From a virus (lineage: Duplodnaviria; Caudoviricetes): a stretch of 64,000 nt of DNA. Where the stretch lies: the IMG/VR virus record IMGVR_UViG_3300025679_000005; one strand, 5' to 3'. Numbering within the stretch: the stretch's first letter is position 1; every line of letters starts with the position of its first letter. This document shows positions 6,711 through 23,466 of the stretch, one piece after another. The notes under the pieces are model-generated. The model was not told the origin of the DNA. It did no database searches and worked only from the letters and a program-made list of their open reading frames with translations. Position numbers and translations under genes: made by a program.

Positions 6711-6727
6711 TGCTCCTTGAAAATTTG
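6711..6727 (+). promoter_or_regulatory. boxA-like antitermination motif
   Basis: TGCTCCTTGAAAATTTG resembles rrn boxA TGCTCTTTAACAATTT. Confidence 0.4.
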
Positions 6728-6731
6728 AACA

Positions 6732-6970: not shown

Positions 6971-6974
6971 TTTT

Positions 6975-7045
6975 GCCCCCATCGTCTATTGGTAGGACAC
7001 TAGGTTCTCAACCTGGTAAGAGGAGTTCAATTCTCCTTGGGGGCA
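6975..7045 (+). tRNA. tRNA-Glu(CTC)
   Basis: Loop TTCTCAA; acceptor GCCCCCA/TGGGGGC. Confidence 0.9.
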
Positions 7046-7096
7046 CTGAGTGGCGTATTGGAGGGGCAGTAATCCACTTGTAAGCCTGCCCCTTGT

Positions 7097-7810: not shown

Positions 7811-7811
7811 C

Positions 7812-7883
7812 GCGGGTGTTACGCCAAGGTGGATTCCGATCTTGCCAAGATCGATTCGGTCGGTTCGATTCCCGTCACCCGCT
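7812..7883 (+). tRNA. tRNA-Gly(GCC)
   Basis: Loop TTGCCAA. Confidence 0.88.
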
Positions 7884-7888
7884 CTCAT

Positions 7889-7972
7889 TGACAGGTACCC
7901 GAGTGGAAGCAGGGGTCCGGCTGTTAACCGGAAGTAGAAATACCGTCGTTGGTTCGAATCCAACCCTGTCAG
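7889..7972 (+). tRNA. tRNA-Asn(GTT) with long variable arm
   Basis: Loop CTGTTAA, G73, 15-nt V region AGTAGAAATACCGTC. Confidence 0.8.
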
Positions 7973-8002
7973 CAATATACCATCTATCAACCTCCCCATT
8001 GT

Positions 8003-8746: not shown

Positions 8747-8750
8747 CGAT

Positions 8751-8822
8751 GCGAGTGAAGCCCCATGGTGGGGCACTAGTTTTCCAAACTAGGATCAGCG
8801 GGTTCGATTCCCGCCACCCGCT
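8751..8822 (+). tRNA. tRNA-Gly(TCC) copy 1
   Basis: Loop TTTCCAA. Confidence 0.88.
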
Positions 8823-8833
8823 CTCGACGACAT

Positions 8834-8905
8834 ACTAGGGTAGCATAAAGGCAATGTGTTCCGCTGTTACCGGAGAAGATGAGGGTTCGATTCCTTCCCC
8901 TAGTG
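8834..8905 (+). tRNA. tRNA-Asn(GTT)
   Basis: Loop CTGTTAC, G73. Confidence 0.8.
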
Positions 8906-8920
8906 CTGACCGTTACGCAT

Positions 8921-8995
8921 TCCTGGGTAGCCAAGCGGTAAGGCAGCGGATTGTTAATCCGCCTAGCGAAGGTTCGATCCCTTCCTCAGGAGCCA
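8921..8995 (+). tRNA. tRNA-Asn(GTT)
   Basis: Loop TTGTTAA, encoded CCA. Confidence 0.9.
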
Positions 8996-9034
8996 ATTTT
9001 TACTTATAGGTATGGCCACTTAGGAGCCATACCT

Positions 9035-9418
9035 ATGTCAGCAGCCAGTCGCGTCGCCCTCCGATACAAGCTTGCCAAGACCTTCCCCTCGGAAAAGGCC
9101 TTGAAAACGTATCTGGACGCCCACCCGAAGGCTGACAAGTCCAAGCATCGAGTCGAGGACGCCGATGTCCAGAGGATCAAGGATGAGGTAGCCCCTCACG
9201 CTAAGATCAAGAAGGACCAGGAAAAGGCTGAAAAGAACCGCGGCAAGGCTAAGGAAAAGCGCGACGACGAAAAGACCAAGAAAGACCTGACTAAGCATCA
9301 GGAAGAGCACCCTCGTGGGACGATCAATTGGGACTACGATCCTAAGAACCGCACGAAGGACCAAAAAGAGAAGTCTGAGAAGGTGGTCGATGAGGCCGTC
9401 GATAAGAAACGCGAGTGA
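9035..9418 (+). CDS. Lys/Asp/Glu-rich hypothetical protein
   Basis: AGGAG RBS; stop overlaps start of tRNA-Gly copy 2. Confidence 0.7.
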   Translation: MSAASRVALRYKLAKTFPSEKALKTYLDAHPKADKSKHRVEDADVQRIKDEVAPHAKIKKDQEKAEKNRGKAKEKRDDEKTKKDLTKHQEEHPRGTINWDYDPKNRTKDQKEKSEKVVDEAVDKKRE

Positions 9419-9482
9419 AGCCCCATGGTGGGGCGCTAGTTTTCCAAACTAGTGCCAGCGGGTTCGATTCCCGCCACTCGCT
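9411..9482 (+). tRNA. tRNA-Gly(TCC) copy 2
   Basis: Near-identical to 8751-8822. Confidence 0.88.
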
Positions 9483-9633
9483 CCCAAGAAACCCGCCGAA
9501 AGGTTATAGCTATACCAATCGGGATTACGGGGATGGTGAAGAGTGGAATGCCGGAGTCCGGATGGACGTTGATGGCGCCCCTGGGTAGCACCCAGTATCT
9601 CTAGTGTGGGTTCGATTCCCGCACCTTGGACTA

Positions 9634-9805
9634 AGGAGTCTCCACTCCTAGAAGCATACACGCAAATAGTAGGTTCGAATCCTGCCTCCTTCACAAGATG
9701 CCTCAATCTCTGAGACCTCTTGTGAAGGAGACGCCCAATGGCCGGGCACCAGACGGTAAATCTGGCTCGCAAGAGCAATCCCTGCTTCACTACTCGGAGA
9801 CTCTT
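9634..9805 (+). ncRNA. circularly permuted tRNA(Tyr)-like RNA (Y RNA/YrlA-like mimic)
   Basis: Order T-arm, 12-bp closed acceptor, D-arm, anticodon arm (CGGTAAA), V-arm, enclosed by outer helices. Confidence 0.7.
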
Positions 9806-9809
9806 TTAT

Positions 9810-9882
9810 GCCTACGTAGCACAATTGGCGGTGCCCCTGTTTTGTACTCAGGAGGTTGGAGGTTCGATGCCTCTCGTAGGCT
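9810..9882 (+). tRNA. tRNA-Thr(TGT)
   Basis: Loop TTTGTAC. Confidence 0.85.
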
Positions 9883-9887
9883 CTCAC

Positions 9888-9961
9888 GCTGGCGTAGCAT
9901 CTCTTGGGAGTGCACTTGCATGGTAAGCAAGTTTAGGTGGGTTCGAATCCCATCGCCAGCT
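9888..9961 (+). tRNA. tRNA-Thr(GGT)
   Basis: Loop ATGGTAA. Confidence 0.85.
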
Positions 9962-10090
9962 CTCAGTCATTGCCCATCACATGGGCCGAAGGTTTCTTCG
10001 GTTGGGCAGTCACCGCCTCGCAAGAGGTTGCAGTCAAAGAGTCGACCGGGAACACCGGCAACTTCTCTGAAACGTGATGACCGTGTCTAT

Positions 10091-10161
10091 GCCTCTTTAG
10101 CTCCAAGGCGGAGCAACGGTTTCGTATACCGTCGGGCTGAGTTCGATTCTCAGGAGAGGCT
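10091..10161 (+). tRNA. tRNA-Thr(CGT)
   Basis: Loop TTCGTAT. Confidence 0.85.
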
Positions 10162-10206
10162 CTACCCCTTGTAGACGGGGCGAAAGAAGTAGTCTACAAT
10201 CTCTAT

Positions 10207-10281
10207 TGCGGGATGGCGCAACCTGGTAGCGCGTCGGCCTCATAAGCCGAAGGTTCTCTGTTCAAATCGGAGTCTCCGCAA
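10207..10281 (+). tRNA. tRNA-Met(CAT), initiator-like
   Basis: Body resembles tRNA-fMet (T-loop TTCAAAT) but anticodon stem TCGGC lacks the third G-C pair. Confidence 0.8.
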
Positions 10282-10290
10282 CTACGCTAT

Positions 10291-10362
10291 GCCCCGTTCG
10301 TCTAACGGTTAGGATACTTGGTTTTCACCCAGGTGACAGGAGTTCGATTCTCCTACGGGGTA
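10291..10362 (+). tRNA. tRNA-Glu(TTC)
   Basis: Loop TTTTCAC. Confidence 0.9.
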
Positions 10363-10477
10363 CTGATTCATTGCTAGGGGTGAGCAGACGATGCAGGCCT
10401 ACGGGTTCGATTCCCGTGTATCAGTGGTGGGAGGCTCGACTGGCTGGCGGGTTCGACACCCGTACAACGAATCAAAT

Positions 10478-10553
10478 GGCTACCAAGCTAACCTGGTGGA
10501 AGCGCTATGTTGAAGCCATAGAGGGCTCCGATCGTAACGGAGGGTAGCCACCA
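10478..10553 (+). tRNA. tRNA-Phe(GAA), atypical T-loop ATCGTAA
   Basis: Loop TTGAAGC; encoded CCA. Confidence 0.8.
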
Positions 10554-11230
10554 AATTTCTTCATCCGTTTGCGAACGGCTGCTTCAGAAACTCCCAGCTC
10601 TCTGGCTACTTGAACTTTAGAACTGTTCAAGACTCGTTTAGCCAACTCCCTTGCAGACGGCCAGTTAATCTTGGTTATGCTCTGACCATAGCATGCCTCG
10701 CATCTTTTAGAGTTTCTGAATACAGGTGCATGACAGTCAGAACATTTGGCTGCTTGTTTCTTGTATCTCCCTTTAGTTTTACTCCTTGTGAAGGTCTTAG
10801 TTTGAGAGTGGCAGTTGGGGCACAAGATCCTTAGATTATCAAGGCGGTTGTCGAATGGGTCTCCGTTGATATGATCCAATTGGAGTGTGATGGGTTCTTC
10901 TTCCCAAACAGGAAGCAACCCACATTTTAGACAAACTTCTTTCAGCAACCCTGCCTTGAATAGACGCTGTTTGAGGGCAACCGTGTTGCGGTATGTGCTG
11001 TCCTCGACCAGGATCTCTTCAAGGGATTGTTTGAGAGGTGTCACAGAAGTACCGTGGGCTCTACCCGTATGGTGGGATATGTCCAAGCCTAGGCGTGTGA
11101 TGTACCCTTTGACTGTCTTGTAGTTGCCAGGACTCGTGGAAATCCCTAGATTTCTGAGGGTATCTGCGATGGTGTAGCTGGAAGCCAGCGCTTTTCGCAG
11201 TTCTTCGTCGGACCAAGTGCGGTTTGACAT
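10505..11230 (-). CDS. HNH endonuclease, family A; tail antisense to tRNA-Phe
   Basis: LQLDHINGDPFDNRLDNLRILCPNCHSQT; WPSARELAKRV..LGVSEAAVRKR. Confidence 0.88.
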   Translation of the reverse strand: MSNRTWSDEELRKALASSYTIADTLRNLGISTSPGNYKTVKGYITRLGLDISHHTGRAHGTSVTPLKQSLEEILVEDSTYRNTVALKQRLFKAGLLKEVCLKCGLLPVWEEEPITLQLDHINGDPFDNRLDNLRILCPNCHSQTKTFTRSKTKGRYKKQAAKCSDCHAPVFRNSKRCEACYGQSITKINWPSARELAKRVLNSSKVQVARELGVSEAAVRKRMKKFGGYPPLRSEPSMAST

Positions 11231-11275
11231 TGTACTAGCGAACATATAGATAGACTAGCACATGGTTCGAGATAC

Positions 11276-11360
11276 GCCGTCGTGGTGGAATTTGGCATAC
11301 ACGCATCGCTGAGAACGATGGCCCCTTGTGGGTATGAGGGTTCAAGTCCCTCCGACGGCA
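11276..11360 (+). tRNA. tRNA-Leu(GAG)
   Basis: Loop CTGAGAA, long V-arm. Confidence 0.9.
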
Positions 11361-11472
11361 CTCCGTGTCCTGGTTCGCGTCCGGGAACAAAATAGAGGCT
11401 ATACCAGGCGCAGGCCCTGGTGCTTCTGAGGTCGGTGGTTTGATCCCACCCCACGGTGAACCTGCATACAAT

Positions 11473-11546
11473 GTCCTCGTAGCACAGCTGGATAGTGCAG
11501 GGCTTTCCTAAAGCTCAGGTCGCAAGTTCGAATCTTGCCGAGGACG
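11473..11546 (+). tRNA. tRNA-Arg(CCT)
   Basis: Loop TTCCTAA. Confidence 0.9.
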
Positions 11547-11553
11547 CTACTAT

Positions 11554-11627
11554 GGTGGCCAATGTTCAATGGATGGACACGCGACTGTGACTCGCGTTTA
11601 GACGGGTTCGATCCCCGCTGGTCACCC
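11554..11627 (+). tRNA. tRNA-His(GTG)
   Basis: Loop CTGTGAC; G-1/C73. Confidence 0.88.
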
Positions 11628-11636
11628 TGATACTTT

Positions 11637-11710
11637 GCTCCCGAAGTCCACTGGTGTAGACGGCAGCTTGTCACGCTGTGTCGAGGAGGGTTCGATTCCC
11701 TTCGGGGCTA
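11637..11710 (+). tRNA. tRNA-Asp(GTC), imperfect acceptor stem
   Basis: Loop TTGTCAC. Confidence 0.75.
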
Positions 11711-11796
11711 TCAAGAAGCATTGCTTAAAACGAGGTGTCGAAACCAAGCCTAGGGGCTACTGGGCAATTCAAGAAGCCCTGAAGAAAATCGGGTGA
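11707..11796 (+). pseudogene. orphan 3' remnant of a family A HNH gene
   Basis: Translates AIKKHCLKRGVETKPRGYWAIQEALKKIG*, matching family A tails. Confidence 0.7.
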
Positions 11797-11856
11797 GAGA
11801 CAACGGGTTCCTCGGGGTTCCCTCTCCGACTAATCCCTCTGTGAAATCGCTAGAGC

Positions 11857-12846
11857 ATGTCCAACGACGTATTGATGGCTCGAACCCTCCTTCCGGCCGA
11901 CTGCATCGACCTGGGGATAGGCGAGCCCCACTTCCTACGGGAAGTTGTAAGTCAGACTTACAACTTGGATTCCTTCAGTTTTTCTGGTCTTCCGAAGATC
12001 TGGGAGTATGCCCCGCCGAACGGCTACGGGCCTCTGGTGAAGCTTTTGGAGGAGAAGTACCAAGCACCCGTCGTTCTCACGGTGGGCGCTAAGCATGGCA
12101 TCTTCGCAGCACTACATGCGGTCCGCCAGCAGGGAGCCCGTTCGGTGGCCTACAGGAAGCCCTACTGGGCCTCGTTCCCCTTCATGATGGCTCGTGCCGG
12201 CCTGAAGTCGGTGACCAACAGCTTGAAGGCAGACGCTCACCTATTGGTGATGCCAAACAATCCCGACGGCTTCGTTCTTTCCGAGGAAAAGACCGCTGAC
12301 TTTTGCAATACCTCGGTGCCAATCATCCACGATGCGGCCTACTACACGGAGAGCTATCTCCCCGACGATTACAAGCTGACCGCTCTGGGCGATATGCAGG
12401 TGTTCAGTGTTTCAAAGATGTATGGTTTGTCAGGGCTGAGGCTAGGCTGGGTCGTGTGCCACAACCCGGTCTACTACAGCGCCTTGACGAGCTTCGTGGA
12501 AGCCACTACCGCAGGGATATCGACGGCCTCTCAGAGAGTGCTGTTGTCGATTCTTGAGGCGGATTCGGCTGACCCCGAGCTTCGGAAGAGTTTCTCCAGG
12601 GAGATGCGAGATCATCTTGCCTGGGCTCACGAGAAGCTCTTGGACCTCGACCCTAAAGTTTTGACCCCTAAGTCATCCGTTGGGATGTTTGGGTGGTGCA
12701 AGAAAGGCCCTAGGTTTGACGCGGTCAAGGCTAAGGTCAATGTGATGGATGGCGCCTCCTTTGGAGACGCCTCGATGGTGCGCCTGAGCTTGGCTGTGTC
12801 GAAGACCACACTGACAAGTGCGGTTCAAAGACTCAACAAGATGTAA
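11857..12846 (+). CDS. PLP-dependent aminotransferase class I/II
   Basis: IDLGIGEP, MPNNPDG, IIHDAAY, SVSKMYGLSGLRLGW (PLP lysine). Confidence 0.92.
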   Translation: MSNDVLMARTLLPADCIDLGIGEPHFLREVVSQTYNLDSFSFSGLPKIWEYAPPNGYGPLVKLLEEKYQAPVVLTVGAKHGIFAALHAVRQQGARSVAYRKPYWASFPFMMARAGLKSVTNSLKADAHLLVMPNNPDGFVLSEEKTADFCNTSVPIIHDAAYYTESYLPDDYKLTALGDMQVFSVSKMYGLSGLRLGWVVCHNPVYYSALTSFVEATTAGISTASQRVLLSILEADSADPELRKSFSREMRDHLAWAHEKLLDLDPKVLTPKSSVGMFGWCKKGPRFDAVKAKVNVMDGASFGDASMVRLSLAVSKTTLTSAVQRLNKM

Positions 12847-13033
12847 AAGGGGTGCCATGTCGAGCAGAAAAGAGTGGACTATCTTAGGCCCTCACAAGAC
12901 AGCTCATTGTGAGAGATGCAAGGCGACCTCAGCCTGGGTGACTGGCGTCCGCTTCGGAGGCAAGGAACTAACATACTGGAGATGGTGGAAGCGTTTCAAG
13001 CAAACGCATTCACGATGTATAGAGCGACAGCAT

Positions 13034-13119
13034 GCTGTTGTGGCGTAATTGGTAGCCGCCCTGGCTTGAGGTGTCAGTGGGATGCAAATCCCGTGTAGGT
13101 TCGAGTCCTATCAACAGCA
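13034..13119 (+). tRNA. tRNA-Leu(GAG) second copy
   Basis: Loop TTGAGGT, long V-arm. Confidence 0.82.
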
Positions 13120-13130
13120 CTAGTAGATAC

Positions 13131-13200
13131 GGGGTTGTCCGTCGGGACGGGGCCTTGCTTCGCACGCAAGCGCACGGGAGTTCAACTCTCCCCAGCTCCA
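13131..13200 (+). tRNA. tRNA-Ala(CGC)
   Basis: Loop TTCGCAC; G3:U70. Confidence 0.85.
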
Positions 13201-13243
13201 CTAGCACTTGGTTTGCGCAATTCACTTGTAATACTACTAGGGT

Positions 13244-13951
13244 ATGCCCATAAAGAACTGCGAAGTCTGTCAGAAGGAATACACAGCCTCCAAGCATGCT
13301 TTGCCCAAGCGTCGAGCCTGTTCTGTGGATTGTGGGCACAAGTTACGTAATAAACATATCACAGTAACTTGTGCCCAATGTTCAACCCCTTTCAGCATCA
13401 GAGCACGTCGGTTGAAACTTTCTAAAAGTGGCCTGGTGTTCTGCTCTAGGCTCTGCAAAGAAAGGGCCTCAAGCTACGGTGGTCACCTTGAGAGAGGTAC
13501 GGGAAAGTATTCCTATCGAGAAAGAGCCTTATCTGAATACGGATCCAGCTGTAATTCGTGCGGGTACGACACAGACGCTAGAATGCTTGATGTAGATCAC
13601 GTAGATTCGGACAGGGGGAATAACAAAATATCAAACTTACGTGTACTGTGCGTCTGGTGTCATGCCTTGAAGACCCGCCAGGTTAGGAGCCATCATCGAG
13701 GCGCTCCTGAGGAGGGAATCAAAAGGGAGAGGTCCGCCAACCCCAGACCCACAAAGATCCATTGGCCTTCAGATGAAGAGCTGGAGGGATTACTTTGGGA
13801 GCAGTCAGCTGTGCAGGTAGCCAAGGCACTTGGCGTCTCCTCTACTGCAATCAAGAAAAGGTGCTTACGGAGAGGAATCCAAACCAGACCCATAGGCTAT
13901 TGGGCTAAGGTGAATTCTCCTACAAATAAGCCCTCCAGAAGATTCAGATAA
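13244..13951 (+). CDS. HNH endonuclease, family A
   Basis: LDVDHVDSDRGNNKISNLRVLCVWCHALKT; WPSDEEL..IGYW. Confidence 0.88.
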   Translation: MPIKNCEVCQKEYTASKHALPKRRACSVDCGHKLRNKHITVTCAQCSTPFSIRARRLKLSKSGLVFCSRLCKERASSYGGHLERGTGKYSYRERALSEYGSSCNSCGYDTDARMLDVDHVDSDRGNNKISNLRVLCVWCHALKTRQVRSHHRGAPEEGIKRERSANPRPTKIHWPSDEELEGLLWEQSAVQVAKALGVSSTAIKKRCLRRGIQTRPIGYWAKVNSPTNKPSRRFR

Positions 13952-13956
13952 CTCAT

Positions 13957-13996
13957 GCTCCAATGGCGGAATGGCAGACGCACCTGGCTTAGTGAA
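13957..13996 (+). pseudogene. 5' half of a tRNA-Leu(TAG), broken at the anticodon
   Basis: GCTCCAA TGGCGGAATGGCAGACGCA CCTGG CTTAG, then unrelated sequence. Confidence 0.6.
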
Positions 13997-14051
13997 GGTT
14001 CAACTCCTTCTGCAATCAACCCGGACCTTCGACTCGAACACTCTTATCTAC

Positions 14052-14133
14052 GCTTCTGTGTCGTAATGCAGCCGAGCGACCCTTAGAAGGTCGTGTCCTT
14101 AGGGACGTGTGGGCTCGATCCCCACCAGAAGCA
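14052..14133 (+). tRNA. tRNA-Leu(TAG)
   Basis: Loop CTTAGAA; atypical T-loop CTCGATC. Confidence 0.82.
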
Positions 14134-14222
14134 CAACTAGCCCGAAAGGCTGGTTAACTTTTACGGGGAGGGCAAGCTTACTATTAGCTTGGACTCAAGA
14201 TACAAGAGTTGTAAGATGTAAT

Positions 14223-14308
14223 GCTACCGTGGCGTAATGGCAGCCGCACCTCACTCAAAACGAGGCGTTCTTTGGGACGTACTGGTTCAAGTCCAGTCGG
14301 TAGCACCA
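14223..14308 (+). tRNA. tRNA-Leu(CAA)
   Basis: Loop CTCAAAA; CCA. Confidence 0.9.
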
Positions 14309-14310
14309 AT

Positions 14311-14385
14311 GGCGAGATGGTCTGAATGGTAAGGCGCCGGTTTGCAAGTCCGGTTTTTTCGTGGGTTCGATTCCCACTCTCGCCT
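14311..14385 (+). tRNA. tRNA-Cys(GCA)
   Basis: Loop TTGCAAG; U73. Confidence 0.85.
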
Positions 14386-14390
14386 CTGAT

Positions 14391-14465
14391 GGTGGCTTCG
14401 TTCTCTGGGAGAGCACTACTTCGACAAGGTAGACCAGGAGGGTTCGATTCCCTCAGCCACTACCA
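14391..14465 (+). tRNA. tRNA-Val(GAC), C at position 33
   Basis: Loop TCGACAA; CCA. Confidence 0.8.
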
Positions 14466-14467
14466 AT

Positions 14468-14542
14468 GTCTCCATGGTGAAACGGATATCACTCGACTCT
14501 ACGAAAGTCGCGTTCTAGGTTCAAATCCTAGTGGAGACGCCA
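14468..14542 (+). tRNA. tRNA-Arg(ACG)
   Basis: Loop CTACGAA; CCA. Confidence 0.9.
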
Positions 14543-14547
14543 CGCAC

Positions 14548-14623
14548 GCTTCTCTGTTGCAACGGATAGCATCGAGGCCTTCTAAGCCTTTGGATCCGAG
14601 TTCGAATCTCGGGGGAAGCGCCA
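14548..14623 (+). tRNA. tRNA-Arg(TCT)
   Basis: Loop CTTCTAA; CCA. Confidence 0.9.
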
Positions 14624-14624
14624 T

Positions 14625-14697
14625 GTCTTCTTGGTGAAACTGGATATCACAAGGCTCTTCGAAAGCTTTATTTCGGGTTCGAATCCCGAGGAAGACG
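14625..14697 (+). tRNA. tRNA-Arg(TCG)
   Basis: Loop CTTCGAA. Confidence 0.88.
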
Positions 14698-14857
14698 CTC
14701 AGATCAACTTGTAGACGATCTCACTGGTTGTCCAAAGGACAACAGTTACAAGGGTGAGCAATAGCTGAGCAACGAATTCGACGGCCGCCATATTCTAGGT
14801 GTTTCATAAATATTAGGACAGGTGAACACACTTTTTCACTTATCGGTGTGTTTGTAC

Positions 14858-15631
14858 ATGGTCTACACGAAGAAGCAGCTAGCTGAGGCAGTTGCCTTGA
14901 GCAGTTCTATTTCAGGCGTGCTGGGATTTCTAGGTGTGTATGGAAGAAGCGGTGGTGTTTGGGCTCGTTTCAAAAAGCTGATCATTGAGCATCGGTTAGA
15001 CACATCTCACTTCAACCCTTCTAGAAGAGGCCAACCCTCATCAAGAAGACGGTCATCGGATAAGGTTTTGGTTCTTAGGGAAATCAACTATCGTGAGACG
15101 ACAGTTAGATTGAGAATGGCTATGCTTGAAGCGGGCTTCTTGCATGTTTGCGCCGTCTGCTCCCAAGCCCCCGAATGGCAAGGGGGCCGTCTGACTCTGC
15201 AAATCGACCATAAGAGTGGTGATTGGAGAGATTGTAGGCAAGAGAATTTGAGATTTCTGTGCCCTAACTGCCACAGTCAGACAAGCACCTTTGGACACAG
15301 GCCTGACCCATTGTTGATAGTCGAGACTTCTTGTGTTTCCTGTTCAAAGAAACTGCGCCTCAACCAGAACACTCTACGGAGAAAGACATCAGGGCCCTAT
15401 TGTAAACCTTGTAGGGATGTGAAATTTTTTGCTGCTAAACCTGCCAGCAAAGAGAAGATTGAGTGGCCAAATCCTATAGAATTGTCCACTTTGGTGTGGA
15501 CCACCCCTGTAACGAAGTTAGCTAACCAACTTGGTGTCTCTGGGTCTGCTATCAAGAAACGTTGTAAGCAACTCGGGATCACGACACCCGGAAGAGGTTA
15601 TTGGTCTCAACGTCAATCAGAGGTGAAGTAG
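14858..15631 (+). CDS. HNH endonuclease, family A
   Basis: LQIDHKSGDWRDCRQENLRFLCPNCHSQT; WPNPIELSTLVW..RGYW. Confidence 0.88.
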   Translation: MVYTKKQLAEAVALSSSISGVLGFLGVYGRSGGVWARFKKLIIEHRLDTSHFNPSRRGQPSSRRRSSDKVLVLREINYRETTVRLRMAMLEAGFLHVCAVCSQAPEWQGGRLTLQIDHKSGDWRDCRQENLRFLCPNCHSQTSTFGHRPDPLLIVETSCVSCSKKLRLNQNTLRRKTSGPYCKPCRDVKFFAAKPASKEKIEWPNPIELSTLVWTTPVTKLANQLGVSGSAIKKRCKQLGITTPGRGYWSQRQSEVK

Positions 15632-15646
15632 CAGCTAGTTGACTGT

Positions 15647-15718
15647 GCCGCGTTAGTCCTCTGGGAGGGCAGCTGGTCTACACCCAGCACCAGGAAGGTC
15701 CGATTCCTTCACGCGGTA
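15647..15718 (+). tRNA. tRNA-Val(TAC), C at position 33
   Basis: Loop TCTACAC; T-loop TCCGATT. Confidence 0.78.
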
Positions 15719-15822
15719 CTAAGTTCGGGAACCTGGTAGGTAAGGGCAGCCCAAGAGGTTCGAGTCCTCAACCCGAGCTAGGCCAATACTGATGGTGATC
15801 AACGTTGGCGTTGGCTGATTTA

Positions 15823-15914
15823 TGCGTCGTGAGTGGAGCTGGTGACCCCATCTGTCTGACATGCAGGTCCCCTTCGAGGTAGTAGCAGAGTTCGATTCTC
15901 TGATGACGCACCCA
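15823..15914 (+). tRNA. non-canonical tRNA, GAC anticodon, 8-bp acceptor/5-bp T stem, long V region
   Basis: TGCGTCGT/ATGACGCA, loop CTGACAT, C73 then CCA. Confidence 0.55.
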
Positions 15915-15957
15915 TGTAGGACGTTTATAGTACATATGTGTTCTATAAACGACGTGA

Positions 15958-16110
15958 TCCCCATAGGCTGGAGGCGGGGCCATTACAGGCCGTGCCCTAG
16001 GCTCTGGAGTCGGAGAGTGAGGGGTTCCCTATGGGACTGTGAGGTACAGCCCAGAAAAAGAACCACTAGCAGCCAGAGCCGCACGGTTCTAGCTTAGCAG
16101 GCCCTAGGGC
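15958..16110 (+). ncRNA. candidate pseudoknotted RNA
   Basis: Crossing helices CCCATAGG/CCTATGGG, GGCTCTGG/CCAGAGCC, GCCCTAGG/CCTAGGGC. Confidence 0.45.
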
Positions 16111-16126
16111 CGAATCAAGATTACAT

Positions 16127-16200
16127 CGGCGATCAAACTCAAGGTGGGTTACCCCGTTCGGAACGGGGGCATTAGGCTGGTTCGATTCCAGCATCGCCGA
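16127..16200 (+). tRNA. tRNA-Pro(CGG)
   Basis: Loop TTCGGAA; C1:G72, A73. Confidence 0.85.
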
Positions 16201-16204
16201 CTAC

Positions 16205-16276
16205 CGGTACGTCATCTAATGGTTAGGATTGTTGTCTGATACACAGCACACGAAAGTTCGATTCTTTCCGTACCGA
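16205..16276 (+). tRNA. tRNA-Ile(GAT)
   Basis: Loop CTGATAC. Confidence 0.85.
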
Positions 16277-16282
16277 CTACAT

Positions 16283-16370
16283 GGAGAGTTAGCCTAATGG
16301 TAAGGCACTGTCTTGGAAAGGCAGCGTTGGCCCTTAAAAGCCATTGCAGGTTCAAGTCCTGTGCTCTCCG
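16283..16370 (+). tRNA. tRNA-Ser(GGA)
   Basis: Loop TTGGAAA, long V-arm, G73. Confidence 0.9.
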
Positions 16371-16396
16371 CTGCTGGTCTGTGCTACACTTCGTGA

Positions 16397-16666
16397 ATGC
16401 CCAGGAAGTTGCTAGTCGAGTTGAGAACGCTGTCTCTTTTCGTAACAGTTGACGACGTTCGGATAGGTGCTTTGGAGAAACTCGAAGTGAGGGCCACAGG
16501 AGACATTAGGGATGTCATTGCGACATTCCCTGCGATCAAATGCTCTGATGACACAGAGGCCCGCATAGTGGAGTACACGAAACTATTGGCTGAGGCCTGG
16601 GTCAGAGTATTCCGTGGCGGTAAGCAGATTGCTGGGCCTGCCGACACACTTCGTCTGGGCGCGTGA
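16397..16666 (+). CDS. hypothetical protein
   Basis: 89-aa ORF between tRNA-Ser and the coiled-coil gene. Confidence 0.55.
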   Translation: MPRKLLVELRTLSLFVTVDDVRIGALEKLEVRATGDIRDVIATFPAIKCSDDTEARIVEYTKLLAEAWVRVFRGGKQIAGPADTLRLGA

Positions 16667-16769
16667 CTAGGCGTAGCGACCTAGGTGGGGGTACCAAGGG
16701 CACTTCGGTGTATGAACGGCTTCACACTGTTGCCCGTCGTGAGCGGGACTAAATTGAAAAGAGAAGACA

Positions 16770-17504
16770 ATGGCGAAACTGAACCAAATTCTGGCGGTCG
16801 AGAAGCAGACCAAGACGAACACCAACGAGCAGATCACGGTCTTGTACCAGACCTTGCAGAAGGCTCCGCTCTTGGCGGGCATCTCCCGTACCTACAAGCC
16901 GGCCGAAGAAGAGGGCGAGCAGTTCCCGCCGGAGAACGTTCAGGTGCAGGTTCGAGTCGAGCAGACTCTCAAGGAAGTCGCCAAGCACATGATCCCGCTC
17001 TTTGACGTGACGATAGCTCGTGACACCGCCAACTGTTCGGCCAAGTCCGACGTGGTCGTGGACGGTAAGGTCATCCTCAAGGATGTTCCGGCAACGTACT
17101 TGCTTTGGCTGGAGAAGCAGCTGACCGACATCCACACGTACATCGTGAAGGTCCCGACCTTGTCCCAAGACGAGACCTGGACTCTTGACACCAACCAGAA
17201 CTGTTACCGTACTGGCGTTGTCGGCACGGCGAAGACGAAGAAGATCCCGCGTGCCTTCGTCAAGGCTGAAGCCACCAAGGAGCACGCAGCTCAGGTGGAT
17301 GTGGTCCATGAGGACAAGGTAGCCGGCTACTGGTCGACCACCAAGTACTCGGGCGCCATTCCCCGCAACCGTGCTCAAGAACTTCGTGACCGAGTGGAGA
17401 AGCTCATGGCTGCAACGAAGGTTGCCCGTGAGCACGCCAATCTCGTGGAGGTGCCCAAGGTAGCAGCCGGCGAAGCCGTGTTCGACTACCTGTTCGCCAC
17501 CTGA
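16770..17504 (+). CDS. conserved coiled-coil protein (MAKLNQILAVEK...) followed by a large structured RNA
   Basis: 244 aa, GAGAAG RBS, highly biased codon use (C/G third positions) suggesting high expression. Confidence 0.85.
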   Translation: MAKLNQILAVEKQTKTNTNEQITVLYQTLQKAPLLAGISRTYKPAEEEGEQFPPENVQVQVRVEQTLKEVAKHMIPLFDVTIARDTANCSAKSDVVVDGKVILKDVPATYLLWLEKQLTDIHTYIVKVPTLSQDETWTLDTNQNCYRTGVVGTAKTKKIPRAFVKAEATKEHAAQVDVVHEDKVAGYWSTTKYSGAIPRNRAQELRDRVEKLMAATKVAREHANLVEVPKVAAGEAVFDYLFAT

Positions 17505-17505
17505 A

Positions 17506-17891
17506 AAGACTACCCCAAGCTGAATCTAAGACTCCTTTTGAAATGTACTACGATGTGGGCGAGAGCCCTGTGCAGGTTCGATTCCTGCCCTCCCAGCCAA
17601 TGTTCGTCAGTTCGCTAACGAGCATTACTGGGAGGTGGCCCAATATGGCAAGAGGCGCATCACCGGTATCTGTCAAGTTTAGGTTTGGGTTCAAGCTGAG
17701 TTACAGTGCTGCGTTCCACCTCTCAAATGGTCATCGGCAATCCTCCGTAAATGTTGGTTCGATTCCGACCTTCCCAGCCATGCTCGTCAGAGCACTAACG
17801 GTCATGGCTGGGAAGTTAGCTAACGGCAAGCTGTGCGGGCTTTAGAGCTGATCGATGATCTTAAACGCCGTGGTGGATTCTAAGCAGTCTT
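17506..17891 (+). ncRNA. about 390-nt RNA with two tandem permuted tRNA-like (T arm / closed acceptor / D arm) modules
   Basis: T-arms at 17572 and 17753, each followed by a long closed stem and a D-loop-like hairpin; ends pair AAGACT/AGTCTT. Confidence 0.65.
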
Positions 17892-17900
17892 AAACAATCC

Positions 17901-17929
17901 GTCCGGGGAGCCGGCTACGCTCCTCGGAC
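17901..17929 (+). other. GC-rich hairpin closing the RNA locus
   Basis: GTCCGGGGAGC..GCTCCTCGGAC. Confidence 0.5.
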
Positions 17930-17992
17930 ACCTAATGGAAGAAGTCGTCTGGGACTTTTTGAGGGTTCGAACCCCTCGTCTTCCTCTTCGTT

Positions 17993-18083
17993 GGATAGGT
18001 GGCTGAGCGGCTTAAAGCACCAGGTTGCTAACTTGACGTGGGACTTAAAAACACCACCGTGGGTTCAAATCCCACCCTATCCG
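17993..18083 (+). tRNA. tRNA-Ser(GCT)
   Basis: Loop TTGCTAA, long V-arm. Confidence 0.88.
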
Positions 18084-18128
18084 CTGTGATACTGGGCTCA
18101 TCCCCTGTTCGCCCACGACAAGACAAAT

Positions 18129-18200
18129 GCTTCTGTATCCTAGTGGAACAGGTAATTCTCTCCGAAAGAATTTACGCAGGTTCGACTCCTGCCAGAAGCG
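18129..18200 (+). tRNA. tRNA-Arg(CCG)
   Basis: Loop CTCCGAA. Confidence 0.82.
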
Positions 18201-18241
18201 CTGCGGGTGTGGCCATAGTTTTCTGTGATACACTATGTGCC

Positions 18242-18727
18242 ATGGACCATGCAGAGAAGTTACGTCGTAACGGGATTCGCCAGCGTGAGAAGAAGAACCG
18301 AAATCGATCGGAGATCTTAAGGCTGCTAGGGGATGCATGTAAAAAGTGCGGCTTCACCGATTCAAGAGCCATTCACATAGACCACGTGAATGGCGGCGGA
18401 GGTATTGATCGGAAAAGCTCAGGTAGTGGATTCCGCTACTACCAACGAGTGTTGAAGTTGATTCTGACTGGCAGTACCGATTATCAGCTGCTGTGTGCTA
18501 ATTGTAACGCCATAAAACTGGCGGACCATGAACGGAGGAAACCTAAGCATGTGGGAGAAATACCCGAAATACCAAAGCTTAGACCATGCGGAACCCATTC
18601 AGCATATCATCGAGGATGTCGATGTGAATTATGCTGCGAAGCCCATCGTGTGTACTGTAGAGAGAAGATGCGAAAACAGAGATTGAGGCGAGGACAAAAA
18701 CCGCGCACCCTCAGGACTCTTAGCTAA
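18242..18727 (+). CDS. HNH endonuclease
   Basis: CKKCGFTDSRAIHIDHVNGGG..YQLLCANCNAIK; the track ORF start at 18038 runs through tRNAs and is too long. Confidence 0.82.
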   Translation: MDHAEKLRRNGIRQREKKNRNRSEILRLLGDACKKCGFTDSRAIHIDHVNGGGGIDRKSSGSGFRYYQRVLKLILTGSTDYQLLCANCNAIKLADHERRKPKHVGEIPEIPKLRPCGTHSAYHRGCRCELCCEAHRVYCREKMRKQRLRRGQKPRTLRTLS

Positions 18728-18734
18728 CAAAAAC

Positions 18735-18803
18735 GGTAACATTCCTAGGAGGAGAGCTGGTTTCATACGCCAAGCTACTATGGTTCGAGTCCATTTGTTA
18801 CCA
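18735..18803 (+). tRNA. tRNA-Met/Ile2(CAT)
   Basis: Loop TTCATAC; short D-arm. Confidence 0.7.
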
Positions 18804-18804
18804 C

Positions 18805-18881
18805 TCCGGAATCGTCTACTGGCCAGGATAACCACGCTTTGAACGTGGGAGAGTAGCGTTCGAGTCGCTAGTCCGGAACCA
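18805..18881 (+). tRNA. tRNA-Gln(TTG)
   Basis: Loop CTTTGAA; CCA. Confidence 0.85.
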
Positions 18882-19302: not shown

Positions 19303-20262
19303 ATGACCTGGAGAGACCTACTTCAAACGGCTGAGGAAACCATCGTGTTGCCTTGGACGGGTGGTCGGACTCTCCGGGGGTACGACCGGGTTTGGACCAT
19401 TGAGGGCCGAACTCCGAACGAGATGGGTTGGTACCGTTTCCGACTGAACGGCCGTAAGGCCAAGGTCGACGGTACCTCCCTGTCTGATACTGACCGTGTG
19501 GGCTGGATAGTCCGAGGGTACCTTGTGGGCGATCGAATCGTCCCTGATGGTGTCCGGATGGACCCAGACCCTCTCAAGATCATTCCGTCCTCGGAGAGGG
19601 TGTACCTCATTGAGGACGGGTTAGACCGATTCGTTAGGATCTCAGCGGGGCGTATTTACGAGGGCGGGCCTCTCGTGTACGTTCAGCAGGAGATGCCTTT
19701 GGGCTCTGAGGACGAAGTGTTGTCAGCGTTCCTTGACCAGAAGCCTTCCGTGGATGCCGTTTCCGGCGTCACACCGGCCCTTGACGCTGCGTTTCGCATG
19801 GAGACGTGGCAACGAGTCGAGGCCGAGCGGAGGCGTCTGGAAGAGGCAGCTAGGCGGCAGGCAGAAGAAGAGCAGCGGCAGCGCGAGGAAAACCGCCGCC
19901 GGCTCGTTGAGCAACTTGGTGATGGGGCCGGCCGAAGGGCCATGGCCCGCGTAGACTTTAGTCAGGCAGCCCGGGCGGCCCTGGCGGTAGGTGGCGCTGA
20001 GTTTCTTGACAATCGTCGAGCGGTTCAACGGGGTGAGATGGTGGTTCGGTTCCGATTGATCAACCGTCGGTTCGAGTGTACTTGCGACGAGAACACTCTG
20101 AGGATCATCGACTCTGGTATTTGCCTCACCCAGGAATATGATGACGGGGACTTTGAAAGAGGCACCAAAGGAGACACATGGCTCTCTTTGGAGTCTCTCC
20201 CCGGTGTAATCATGGAAGCGGATCGAGAAGGAAAGCTGGTGGTTTTCAGACATGTCGATTGA
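19303..20262 (+). CDS. putative E2/UBC-like conjugating protein with N-terminal domain and central coiled coil
   Basis: C-terminal RIIDSGICLT...DTWLSLESLPGVIMEA resembles the UBC active-site GxICL..W..L..(L/I) pattern; first gene of the JAB/Ubl/ThiF cluster. Confidence 0.55.
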   Translation: MTWRDLLQTAEETIVLPWTGGRTLRGYDRVWTIEGRTPNEMGWYRFRLNGRKAKVDGTSLSDTDRVGWIVRGYLVGDRIVPDGVRMDPDPLKIIPSSERVYLIEDGLDRFVRISAGRIYEGGPLVYVQQEMPLGSEDEVLSAFLDQKPSVDAVSGVTPALDAAFRMETWQRVEAERRRLEEAARRQAEEEQRQREENRRRLVEQLGDGAGRRAMARVDFSQAARAALAVGGAEFLDNRRAVQRGEMVVRFRLINRRFECTCDENTLRIIDSGICLTQEYDDGDFERGTKGDTWLSLESLPGVIMEADREGKLVVFRHVD

Positions 20263-21049
20263 CAGAAAGGCTATTGCCAGAAATAGGAAGTCAAGCCGAA
20301 TGATCACAGCTTTTGACAGAACCCAATGTCTTTCTGCTTGGGCGGAGGAGGGTGGTATTGGGTATGCCACTATCCGTATGAGGCTCTCCGCCGGCTGGGC
20401 TCCAGAAGTGGCAGTAACACTCCCACCAGGGGCCCACCGTGTTCAGCGGACTACTGAAGGGTACTCCGGTTTTTCTCAATTGAAGGAAGTTCTGACACAG
20501 TACCGTTCGACAGAGATGGTGCCGGTGATCTGCACTAGATGTGCCGCCCAGTTCTTTAGGACGAAGGAGGAACTGGCAAAAGCTCACAAGAACCGACATG
20601 GGATATTTTGCTCCTCTTTTTGTGGGGCGAAGTATCCGTCAGAAAAGAATATTTTAGAGGTAGATGGCATTAAGGGCAAGATCTGTAGAGCTTGCAATAC
20701 CTGGAAGGTTCTGCCTAAAATAGGTAACAAAAGGGTATGTGACACATGCCTAAATACAAGACCTAGATCCAGATATACCGACTACAAGAGACATTCTAAG
20801 TACGGCTTCGCCTTAACATTTGATGAGTTCAATAGCCTCATATTCCAGGCTTGCTGGTATTGTGGAACTCGCGCAGGCATTGACGGTAACGGTATTGACC
20901 GTATCGATAGCCTGAAAGGGTACTCCACAGATAATTGTCTACCTTGTTGCAAGGGATGCAATAGGTCGAAAAGTAACCATTCTCAGCAAGAGTTCTTGGA
21001 ACGGTGCCATAGAATAGCGCAGAGGCATCCAATGGAGAGTACATGTTAG
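20252..21049 (+). CDS. HNH-like endonuclease inserted in the Ubl operon
   Basis: CWYCG..NGIDRIDSLKGYSTDNCLPCCKGCNRSK. Confidence 0.82.
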   Translation: MSIDRKAIARNRKSSRMITAFDRTQCLSAWAEEGGIGYATIRMRLSAGWAPEVAVTLPPGAHRVQRTTEGYSGFSQLKEVLTQYRSTEMVPVICTRCAAQFFRTKEELAKAHKNRHGIFCSSFCGAKYPSEKNILEVDGIKGKICRACNTWKVLPKIGNKRVCDTCLNTRPRSRYTDYKRHSKYGFALTFDEFNSLIFQACWYCGTRAGIDGNGIDRIDSLKGYSTDNCLPCCKGCNRSKSNHSQQEFLERCHRIAQRHPMESTC

Positions 21050-21444
21050 AGACAGGTGTTTTAGTTGGAACTAGTGGTCAAATTTTAGCTTGGCACCTTC
21101 CTCCGGGGCGTACTAGTGGGTACCTTCCCGATAGCCGTAATCTGTGGGAAATTCTGTGGGAGCACCGAAAGGGGCTCTACGGGTTTGCTCACAGCCACCC
21201 CGGCTCCGGGCCCGTCGCCCCCTCGAATGAGGACCTGACGACGTTCTCGGCTGTTGACAGGGCTTTGGGTCAGCGGCTGGTCTGGCCGATTTCTTCAGAA
21301 GATCACGTGGCCTTCTTTACTTGGAAGGGGCCTGGGCCGTATGACTACGCACACGCTGGACAGTTCAATGCGGATGACGCACCGGACTGGATGCCAGCTG
21401 AATGGCTCCTGAAATTGCGGGAGCTTTCTAACTACAACAAATGA
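21043..21444 (+). CDS. JAB/MPN+ (JAMM) metallopeptidase
   Basis: N-terminal E; AHSHPGSGPVAPSNEDL = HxH-x7-S-x2-D. Confidence 0.85.
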   Translation: MLETGVLVGTSGQILAWHLPPGRTSGYLPDSRNLWEILWEHRKGLYGFAHSHPGSGPVAPSNEDLTTFSAVDRALGQRLVWPISSEDHVAFFTWKGPGPYDYAHAGQFNADDAPDWMPAEWLLKLRELSNYNK

Positions 21445-21454
21445 CGGAGAAAAC

Positions 21455-21715
21455 ATGGACATTGAGACATTTCAAGCACGGGTGAACATCACCTACAACG
21501 GATCCAACGGGGATCTCCCGGATCCAGTCACCTTCGACTCGACGGATGCAGCCATCCGCGGGTTCATCACGGAAGCTGTGCGTGCAGGCAGCGTTCCTGG
21601 TATAGCGGCCGATCCGAACGCAGACTTCACGGACTTCGTGATCGATCGGTTCACAGCGAATGAGGTAACGCCCTTTAATCGCCTGATGGCCCGGCCCAAG
21701 ACTCCCTTCGGCTGA
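21455..21715 (+). CDS. ubiquitin-like (beta-grasp) protein
   Basis: 86 aa, GGAG RBS, ends RPKTPFG (free C-terminal Gly), lies between JAB and ThiF. Confidence 0.7.
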   Translation: MDIETFQARVNITYNGSNGDLPDPVTFDSTDAAIRGFITEAVRAGSVPGIAADPNADFTDFVIDRFTANEVTPFNRLMARPKTPFG

Positions 21716-21753
21716 GCCCTTACCTCTTCTGAAACCCGACCGTATAGAGCAAC

Positions 21754-22326
21754 ATGAAACGAATCACTGTCGTAGGCGTCGGAGCCTTAGGTTCCCACGT
21801 CGTCATGTTGCTCCGTAATGTCGGGGCAGACCTTCGAGTCATCGACTTCGATCGGGTCGAGCAGAAGAACGTTCTGTCTCAGTTTCACGGGAAGACTCAG
21901 GTGGGCAAGAACAAGTGCCAATCCCTGGCTCAGACCATGAACTTCCTGTTCGGGACGAAGATGATCATGTTCCCTCATAGGCTCACCTCGGAGAACGACA
22001 CTCAGCTATTGGGCGGCTCCGACCTCCTCATCGACTGCTTGGACAACGGGACAGCGAGGAAGGTGGTTCAGGACTTCGCTCGCAAGACCAAGACCCCGTG
22101 CTTGCATGGAGCTTTGGCTGCGAACGGAGGCTTCGGTCGAGTCGTCTGGGATGCCAAATTCGAGATTGATGAGGCCTCGGGAGGAGCCGCCACCTGCGAA
22201 GACGGCGCTCATCTGCCGTTCATTTCGATCACGGCTAGCTACTTGGCCAAGGCCGCCCAGGACTTCCTGGTCCACGGCAAGACCACGGGCTACCAAATTC
22301 ACCCGCAGGGAGTGTTCGCCGTCTGA
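21754..22326 (+). CDS. ThiF/E1-like adenylyltransferase
   Basis: VVGVGALGS, IDFDRVEQKNVLSQ, GKNK, IDCLDN; candidate catalytic Cys in ATCED. Confidence 0.9.
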   Translation: MKRITVVGVGALGSHVVMLLRNVGADLRVIDFDRVEQKNVLSQFHGKTQVGKNKCQSLAQTMNFLFGTKMIMFPHRLTSENDTQLLGGSDLLIDCLDNGTARKVVQDFARKTKTPCLHGALAANGGFGRVVWDAKFEIDEASGGAATCEDGAHLPFISITASYLAKAAQDFLVHGKTTGYQIHPQGVFAV

Positions 22327-22383: not shown

Positions 22384-23088
22384 ATGGAAGAGACGCGAAT
22401 TTGCAAGAAGTGTGGCAAAGACAAGCTGATTACGAAGTTTCAGCTCGCACGAAGCGGGAAAAGTCGCGGTCGTACCTGTATGGCCTGCATCCACAAGGAT
22501 TGGTATCATAGCAAAGGTAAAGCCAGAAGCGCTGAGCGGCTGGCTAAGCAGGATGCTACAGAGCCTCTACGCACTTGCAACACCTGCGGCCTCGAAAAGA
22601 ATATCGTCAACTTCGGTGAGGTAGGCGGTGGATATCGGCGGAGAACGTGCAAGTTATGTTGCTCCAGAGCAGATGAGACGACGTTCAAATTAAATGGAGA
22701 TGTGCTCTTACGGAAAGGCACTAGGAGTGCTCAAGAAAAAGTAAGAAGAGTATGCGACATCCCTAAGACAATATATACGGATTGCCGTGGGTCAGACCGT
22801 AAGAAAGGATTCCCAGACTCAGACTTGACAGTGGAGATCATCGCCAAGTTGTTATACGGGGGTTGTCGTTATTGCGGGGAGACCGATCTCCGGATGACTT
22901 TGGATCGAATAGACACTAGCCAAGGTCATAGTGTAGCGAATGTCGTGCCAGCCTGCCTTCGATGCAACTATCATAGAGGTTCCATGCCTTACGAGGCTTG
23001 GCTGCATATTGCTCCGGCTGTCAGGTCGGCTCGCGAGCTGGGATTGTTCGGTACCTGGAGGTCCAAACCTTTTAACAAAAAGTCTTGA
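22384..23088 (+). CDS. HNH-like endonuclease, family B
   Basis: GCRYCGETDLRMTLDRIDTSQGHSVANVVPACLRCNYHRGSMPY. Confidence 0.8.
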   Translation: MEETRICKKCGKDKLITKFQLARSGKSRGRTCMACIHKDWYHSKGKARSAERLAKQDATEPLRTCNTCGLEKNIVNFGEVGGGYRRRTCKLCCSRADETTFKLNGDVLLRKGTRSAQEKVRRVCDIPKTIYTDCRGSDRKKGFPDSDLTVEIIAKLLYGGCRYCGETDLRMTLDRIDTSQGHSVANVVPACLRCNYHRGSMPYEAWLHIAPAVRSARELGLFGTWRSKPFNKKS

Positions 23089-23261: not shown

Positions 23262-23265
23262 CTCT

Positions 23266-23408
23266 GTTACGGTCACCAGCTCTAACCCTACAAGCAATAT
23301 ACACGGGTTCGATTCCCGTTGTCCCCTTCGGGGGATATCGTCTAGTGGTTAGGACATTTTCTATTCAAGAAAAACAACGCAAACCTGGTTAGAGCACTCG
23401 ACCGTAAC
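23266..23408 (+). ncRNA. circularly permuted tRNA(Glu)-like RNA (Y RNA/YrlA-like mimic)
   Basis: Two 9-bp outer helices; T-arm; acceptor closed by UUCG; Glu-type D-arm; anticodon loop TATTCAA. Confidence 0.72.
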
Positions 23409-23418
23409 TGAAATCTTA

Positions 23419-23450
23419 GAAAGCCTCCTTTCGGGGGCTTTCTGCTTTTG
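23419..23450 (+). terminator. intrinsic terminator
   Basis: AGAAAGCCTCC-TTTC-GGGGGCTTTCT followed by GCTTTT. Confidence 0.7.
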
Positions 23451-23466
23451 TGGTGTAGGTGGTAAT

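Follow-up and report, generated by a model that had tools for sequence, protein, structure and literature searches.

Does a huge phage carry a protein-tagging pathway of its own, and through which protein would the tag be passed on? The question is raised by a stretch of Caudoviricetes DNA of 64,000 nucleotides (IMG/VR record IMGVR_UViG_3300025679_000005), called here the window, in which four co-oriented genes lie between positions 19,303 and 22,326. A sequence-only reading had described them as genes for an E2-like protein of 319 amino acids (p319), a JAB/JAMM metallopeptidase (JAB), a ubiquitin-like protein (Ubl) and a ThiF/E1-like adenylating enzyme (E1), together forming phage ligation and deconjugation machinery. 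The open reading frames are all on the plus strand and were positioned and described correctly (Table 1). The Ubl, E1 and JAB parts of that interpretation stood, and the assignment of p319 to the E2 enzymes was not supported. The cassette belongs to a larger conserved module that consists of the gene for a von Willebrand factor A (vWA) protein, the genes for p319, JAB, Ubl and E1, and a tRNA-mimic RNA. Our preferred reading, held tentatively and a little short of even confidence, is that the cassette serves the activation, processing and transfer of the Ubl, with Cys274 of p319 acting as a carrier or ligase that lacks the ubiquitin-conjugating (UBC) fold and with an RNA-protein particle as the setting.

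The cassette and its Ubl, E1 and JAB proteins

A scan of IMG/VR returned 72 related loci, the longest contig measuring 618 kb. In 68 to 73 of 73 loci the four genes share a strand and follow one another as p319, JAB, Ubl, E1, and each cassette protein has between hundreds and about 2000 homologue clusters; because of this fixed order and these large families, the genes are more than chance open reading frames. Homing endonucleases and small genes interrupt the cassette at differing places among the 73 loci. The window has such an insert, an HNH gene already recognized as wedged behind the first gene, which overlaps p319 and JAB by a few bases, and in L008 and similar relatives JAB follows p319 directly with no HNH gene between them. 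When a phage collection was searched by DNA and by protein, the set was present only in Virus Rctr197k. The p319 homologue of this phage (L001 2032-2970, corresponding to 183293-184231 on the minus strand of KX853510) shares 53% identity over 316 residues with that of the window; it is unannotated in GenBank, where a "hypothetical protein" on the opposite strand, Rctr197k_234, is annotated over the same span.

The E1 matched Pfam ThiF with 83.6 bits against a cut-off of 28.1. Comparison with 25 relatives showed that G8, G10 and G13 of the GxGxxG loop, D31, D33, K54, D94 (in DCLDN) and R102 are invariant, as are the cysteines C95, C116 and C148. The last of these, in an A-T-C-E-D-G loop after the Rossmann core, bears out the earlier suggestion of a candidate catalytic cysteine, and from its spacing we infer that it is equivalent to C184 of ThiF and C187 of MoeB. 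The best sequence matches in the PDB were MoeB (1jw9 was used for the alignment), Uba4, ThiF, Cap2 and Uba5, and the NCBIfam matches were ThiF, MoeB and UbaA, the SAMP-activating UbaA at 4.6e-16. The family comprises about 1988 homologue clusters. The 190 amino acids of the enzyme include neither Zn CxxC pairs nor a rhodanese, ubiquitin-fold or other second domain. Matches of PADLOC models to the cassette covered solely the E1 part of Cap2, and these models gave no convincing match to p319, Ubl or JAB.

The JAMM peptidase was confirmed as well. Its motif (E3, H50-x-H52...S61-x-x-D64) is intact, and E3, H50, H52, S61 and D64 are conserved at 98% or more in 64 relatives; the Pfam Prok-JAB score, 24.1 bits, lies just below the cut-off of 25.

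The 86-amino-acid protein ending in Gly had no sequence match in Pfam, NCBIfam or the PDB. Fold prediction gave a beta-grasp, as expected for a Ubl, with the arrangement strand-strand-helix-strand-strand at a pLDDT (predicted score in the local distance difference test) of 93, and its structural neighbours are nearly all ubiquitin-like, PB1, ISG15 or MoaD domains, with modest Z values of up to 4.8. Its family numbers 451 clusters (60-77% identity), and R80, K82 and G86 of the C-terminal ..RPKTPFG are invariant. Among 109 relatives with the strict motif, 16 end at this Gly and the rest bear 1-55 additional, unconserved residues, some of them Cys-rich; the Rctr197k Ubl has about 60 residues past the Gly. 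The Ubl of the window has no tail after Gly86. To judge from these sequences, the tailed relatives have the signature of a precursor that would be trimmed to a bare Gly, and since variable tails follow an invariant Gly in most relatives, JAB is probably a maturase in this family, besides possibly a deconjugase. It had been argued that the Ubl needs no maturation and that JAB is therefore probably a deconjugase; the first part is correct for the copy in the window and does not extend to the family, where 93 of the 109 relatives are tailed. A Cys-rich (CxxC...CCxC) tail of 26-28 residues past the Gly is found in the relatives P0046, P0060, P0068, P0071, P0082, P0089 and P0114. Such a tail could be a detachable Zn-ribbon partner; the E1 of 190 amino acids is without the Zn site of MoeB and ThiF.

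The first protein of the cassette

The p319 gene starts at the ATG at 19303, which encodes the family N-terminus MxWxDLL, and not at the GTG at 19276, so the reading of 319 amino acids was right. The family includes 370 representatives, almost all of 300-330 amino acids. In 44 diverse relatives G72, R212, G272, C274, E297 and L312 are invariant, C259 and L275 are nearly so, and no Lys is conserved as an acceptor. The AlphaFold2 model (pLDDT 91.9) consists of a beta-rich N-domain of tandem oligonucleotide/oligosaccharide-binding (OB) folds (about 10-145), a long helix (158-205) and an alpha/beta C-domain (208-319) that has two short helices, four strands (233-270), Cys274 four residues on and a helix at 299-308. 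The coiled coil followed by SGICL, on which the E2 call had been founded, is thus real. Fold searches related the N-domain to the RNA-binding OB folds of RNase II/R, IF1 and S17, and the protein also has coiled-coil and dimerization-like (DsbC-N-like) parts. This N-terminal half resembles the double-OB interdomain of Mpa/ARC in the mycobacterial Pup-proteasome; it is the type of tandem OB that binds RNA or that, in Mpa, serves to feed in Pup-tagged proteins.

The UBC fold itself was not found. Neither UBC nor E2 appeared in five fold searches, in which the C-domain was thinly sampled, and three hidden Markov model (HMM) searches (Pfam at E up to 0.1, NCBIfam and PDB profiles) gave no match. 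There is no HPN motif before C274 (..TLRIIDSGICL) and no match to Pfam UQ_con or Prok-E2_A-E. Canonical E2s carry the motif G-x-I-C-L; p319 has G-I-C-L. A Prok-E2_B search of 301 Myxococcota genomes produced no usable E2. Because no E2 stood in any fold or HMM list and the HPN motif is lacking, p319 was not filed under the E2s, with which it has an invariant cysteine, C274, in common. If the model is correct, p319 is a cysteine protein of a new kind, with a shape other than that of an E2. A role as thioester carrier is possible, as suggested by the invariant Cys and the strict linkage and not by the fold.

The vWA partner, the tRNA-mimic RNA and their distribution

In 71 of the 72 related loci the gene directly upstream of p319 encodes a protein of about 630 amino acids, with a helical N-terminal part and a vWA domain in which the metal ion-dependent adhesion site (MIDAS; DxSxS, T, D) is invariant. 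A contig of 465,854 bp carries exact copies of the Ubl and E1 proteins of the window, and none of the 120 best database relatives of the vWA protein was located on it. In the phage of the window the RNA and the four-protein cassette are intact and the vWA partner is missing (within 155 kb). An hhalign comparison of the vWA partner with 17 genuine Myxococcota TROVE proteins gave 81% over 283 columns that include the vWA domain, and its protein-language-model neighbours are TROVE/DUF2828 at 0.82, which is a lead only. The partner is possibly Ro60-like.

The RNA gene lies in a gene-poor stretch past the second HNH insert. An outer stem (23270-23287 with 23386-23403) joins both ends of the molecule and encloses a T-arm (23303-23319) with the loop GGUUCGAUUCC, an acceptor-like stem of 7 bp closed by UUCG (23320-23337), a D-arm (23340-23355) with AGUGGUUA and an anticodon-like hairpin of 5-6 bp (23357-23373). 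Sequence homologues were found in ten other loci, a few hundred bases downstream of E1. Their alignment has compensatory changes in 22 of 29 pairs, and 96.5% of the cells are paired, compared with 74.5% after shuffling (none of 500 shuffles as high) and 33-50% with slid partners. A covariance model scored the RNA of the window at 123.8 bits and detected full-length copies of at least 40 bits in 50 of 93 sources, Rctr197k and the chromosomal Myxococcota operons included. In Myxococcota the copy lies shortly before the vWA gene (L125, L126, L089) or shortly after E1 (L096, L081). Inside its tRNA array the window has a second, more divergent full-length copy whose acceptor-like loop contains 29 inserted nucleotides; weaker partial matches to the model come from places where two tRNAs adjoin.

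The best Rfam family for this RNA was YrlA (RF02553), below threshold at 19.8 bits against a gathering score of 69 (E 0.042 in a 166-base search), and a search of 8 kb returned nothing for it at E up to 1. The YrlA alignment covers T, acceptor-like and D elements that follow one another as they do in YrlA, and this YrlA-type architecture is accompanied by covariation. Bacterial Y RNAs of the YrlA type have this layout and are encoded beside Ro60 genes in bacteria and phages (PMC4201824).

The window corresponds to bases 46137-110136, read on the minus strand, of an IMG/VR record of 155,231 bases with a CheckV completeness of 32%. It reads as a segment of a huge phage, with about 53% GC, one coding strand that predominates, 41 genes for tRNAs and a transfer-messenger RNA (tmRNA) gene at 35423-35817 (tag ANDNYYAAAA). 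An RNA run containing this DNA was sought as a sign of expression and none was found, the sole match being one metagenome DNA run from peat. Only 420 bases separate the last tRNA of the array from p319. Among the related loci, 63 of the 72 have tRNAs within 10 kb of the module and 52 have at least 3, with 1020 tRNAs over 1.41 Mb altogether. In the usual phage layout the tRNA array halts at the vWA gene and restarts past E1.

The module is not confined to phages. In a species-genome collection, close E1 relatives belong mostly to Myxococcota, including the cultured isolate Paraliomyxa miuraensis SMH-27-4. There, on contigs of up to 3.2 Mb, the five genes form a tight operon of 65-73% GC with few or no tRNAs, and around it lie ordinary genes that show no conservation (gyrA, sulfatase, dehydrogenase, peptidases, kinases). 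p319 was present in 10 of 401 sampled Myxococcota genomes. Open frames of 867-997 amino acids that appeared to fuse vWA and p319 in Myxococcota were rejected as overlapping frames in high-GC DNA. The module is exchanged with Myxococcota chromosomes; phage and chromosomal rows are interleaved in a quick, effectively unrooted tree of p319, which gives no direction of transfer. Five contigs from metagenome-assembled genomes (MAGs) labelled Gemmatimonadota, Kofleriaceae, Polyangiaceae and Lentisphaeria (L082, L083, L084, L086 and L087) have the module within tRNA arrays and mostly a lower GC content than the chromosomal operons. Their p319 nests in phage clades, that of L082 at 0.08 changes per site from the viral L029. 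These are probably huge-phage contigs misbinned into bacterial MAGs.

Table 1. Features in and around the cassette (positions within the window)
Feature	Position	Strand	Remarks
tRNA gene array, 38 tRNAs	5653..18881	+	ARAGORN and Rfam; last tRNA Gln, 18805-18881
Second, more divergent tRNA-mimic copy	9637..9809	+	Covariance model R1, 55.6 bits, E 2e-13, full length; in tRNA array
p319	19303..20262	+	Open reading frame; 319 amino acids; earlier "E2-like"
HNH/endonuclease VII-type homing endonuclease	20252..21049	+	PHROG matches; inserted behind p319 and before JAB; does not belong to the system
JAB/JAMM metallopeptidase, 133 amino acids	21043..21444	+	Pfam Prok-JAB 3.4e-5
Ubl, 86 amino acids	21455..21715	+	Beta-grasp; ends KTPFG-stop
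E1-like adenylating enzyme, 190 amino acids	21754..22326	+	Pfam ThiF 1.5e-23
Second HNH/endonuclease VII-type insert	22384..23088	+	PHROG matches; between E1 and RNA gene
YrlA-like tRNA-mimic RNA	23265..23413	+	Fold z -3.2; covariation; in gene-poor stretch past second HNH
Terminator-like G+C hairpin, U-rich tail	23417..23452	+	Directly past RNA gene; minimum-free-energy fold of 23270-23470

Other genes of the window were recorded alongside. HNH endonucleases with an RWP-RK-like helix-turn-helix are scattered through the 13-kb array, which also contains a pyridoxal phosphate enzyme (class I/II aminotransferase or alliinase-like, of the C-S lyase type) at 11857-12846 and a DUF7873 protein (Pfam 3.9e-95) at 16770-17504. 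The homologue of the latter, gp152 of Gordonia phage GodonK (L002), is likewise encoded within a tRNA array; DUF7873 was rejected as a member of the module, being near it in just 6 of 73 loci. An 820-amino-acid protein with an N6/N4 DNA methylase domain is encoded at 18-2480, a protein with an FGE-sulfatase domain at 25385-26263, and a PAS histidine kinase with a response regulator at 31008-32965 (minus strand), the same pair being near the module in L003. A short vWA protein of 191 amino acids (39029-39604) is unrelated to the partner of about 630 amino acids and was rejected as such; it matches just the first 174 residues of a 470-amino-acid vWA protein of the L003 phage and may be truncated or split. 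A promoter and terminator scan of 18700-23400 gave counts close to the shuffled expectation.

Proposed pathway, competing explanations and known systems

In the pathway that we propose, JAB would cut the Ubl precursor and expose Gly86, a step that would be unneeded for the copy in the window. E1 would then adenylate Gly86 and hold the Ubl on Cys148, from which it would move to Cys274 of p319, a functional carrier or ligase without a UBC fold, and finally to a target. The target or setting would probably be an RNA-protein particle formed by the MIDAS vWA protein, possibly Ro60-like, and the tRNA-mimic RNA, because the vWA gene precedes p319 in nearly all relatives and the YrlA-like RNA lies beside the operon in both phages and Myxococcota. 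We also counted in favour of this pathway that the five-gene operon of Myxococcota includes no sulfur-transfer partner.

Several observations weigh against it. No E2 fold was detected in p319, whose putative role as carrier is deduced from a single invariant Cys and from the linkage of the genes. The nearest sequence relatives of the E1 are sulfur-carrier activators (MoeB, ThiF and Uba4). The position beside tRNA arrays might reflect synteny inherited inside one phage clade. As to the particle, no homologue or remnant of the vWA partner was detected in the window or in the 155 kb record. Pfam TROVE was not matched by any of 24 members of the vWA family, and hhalign of the helical part alone against TROVE gave an E of 0.08, like the controls; a TROVE identity is thus unsupported by HMM, or by hhalign once the vWA domain is left out. 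The full proposal, a new Ubl system whose OB-fold/coiled-coil cysteine carrier acts on or through a Ro60/Y-RNA-like particle and couples tagging to tRNA/RNA surveillance during huge-phage infection, and also in some Myxococcota, is speculative, and we regard it as doubtful.

The kinship of the E1 with MoeB, Uba4 and ThiF leads to the explanation that the Ubl is a sulfur carrier whose thiocarboxylate donates sulfur, for example for the thiolation of phage tRNAs or of the tRNA-mimic RNA, with p319 (OB folds, C259/C274) as an RNA-binding relay or transferase. The location of the module within tRNA arrays and beside a tRNA-like RNA, and the likeness of the p319 N-domain to RNA-binding OB folds, fit this explanation. 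That JAB peptidases work with sulfur carriers as well (CysO/Mec+, QbsE/QbsD, TtuB, SAMPs) was counted for it too. However, the terminus of the Ubl is invariantly Phe-Gly and not the Gly-Gly that is typical of ThiS, MoaD, Urm1, TtuB and SAMPs. The 155 kb record yielded no PP-loop thiolase (PF01171). Neither the 10-kb surroundings of the 72 loci nor the Myxococcota operons have a recurrent thiolase, rhodanese or desulfurase, and p319 is predicted to have neither a PP-loop nor a rhodanese fold. We consider a sulfur carrier unlikely.

The transfer could also be independent of an E2, as in sampylation or urmylation, with E1 alone passing the Ubl on and p319 serving as scaffold, RNA-binding adaptor or modified target. 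The lack of an E2 fold in p319, the minimal E1 with an invariant Cys148 of its own and a match to UbaA, and the coiled-coil and DsbC-N-like parts typical of scaffolds are consistent with such a scheme. The invariant G272 and C274 in an otherwise variable loop look catalytic or acceptor-like, and no Lys of p319 is conserved as an acceptor; both speak against it, and we judge this scheme improbable as well. A canonical E1-E2-Ubl-JAB cascade, in which p319 is a true but much diverged UBC-fold E2 used by the phage against host defences, is very unlikely, since the fold and HMM searches returned no E2, the HPN motif is absent and the Cys lies 4 residues past strand 4, PADLOC covers only the E1 part of Cap2, and the module is also found in bacterial chromosomes among ordinary flanking genes.

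Several known systems resemble the module in some of its parts. In the archaeal SAMP1-3/UbaA/HvJAMM1 and the Thermus TtuB/TtuC plus JAMM systems, too, a small beta-grasp protein ends in Gly, the ThiF-type E1 has one domain and a Cys in a loop, there is a JAMM peptidase, and an E2 cannot be recognized. They are tied to tRNA biology (PMC2948915, PMC4443979). The module differs from them by its Phe-Gly end, a shorter E1 of 190 amino acids without Zn CxxC, the lack of a thiolase partner, its carriage by huge phages, and obligate extra partners, namely p319, the MIDAS vWA protein and the tRNA-mimic RNA.

CBASS (cyclic oligonucleotide-based anti-phage signalling system) Cap2/Cap3, Bil (BilABCD) and Bub are likewise operons of an E1, a Ubl and a deconjugating or maturing peptidase with a patchy occurrence in cellular genomes, and Cap2 models match the E1. 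The Bub peptidase also matures a Ubl precursor (PMC11601596). Their E2s are structurally recognizable and their contexts are defensive, whereas no E2 fold was detected here and the Myxococcota flanks are ordinary. Ro60 (Rsr)/YrlA shares with the module an RNA composed of a long terminal stem, T-arm, acceptor-like stem-loop and D-arm, in that order, beside the gene of a vWA protein. Ro60/YrlA is often found beside RtcB/RtcA RNA repair genes, and L005 has an RtcB gene close to the module. The differences are the extra anticodon-like hairpin of the module RNA, its low YrlA score and a vWA partner that is not detectably TROVE. The module shares parts with all three groups of systems and belongs to none. 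It is not described in a survey of prokaryotic ubiquitin systems (PMC1779556), in a comparative study of jumbo phages (PMC7824862) or in a survey of vWA conflict systems (PMC7159879). No description of it was found in the literature searched, and no link of a Ubl system to Ro60/Y RNA is reported there.

The prokaryotic Ubl systems known so far act either as sulfur relays or in anti-phage defence (CBASS, Bil, Bub). The cassette lies beside a tRNA-mimic RNA, a connection of protein tagging with RNA biology that the literature searched does not describe. Should the Ubl be conjugated, the system would represent tagging on the phage side with a non-UBC carrier, tied to RNA-protein particles, neither of which was found in the literature searched. 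The window is a natural variant of the module, with no vWA gene (155 kb) and no need for Ubl trimming. A large clade of huge phages from the environment has the Ubl/E1/JAB set as its hallmark.

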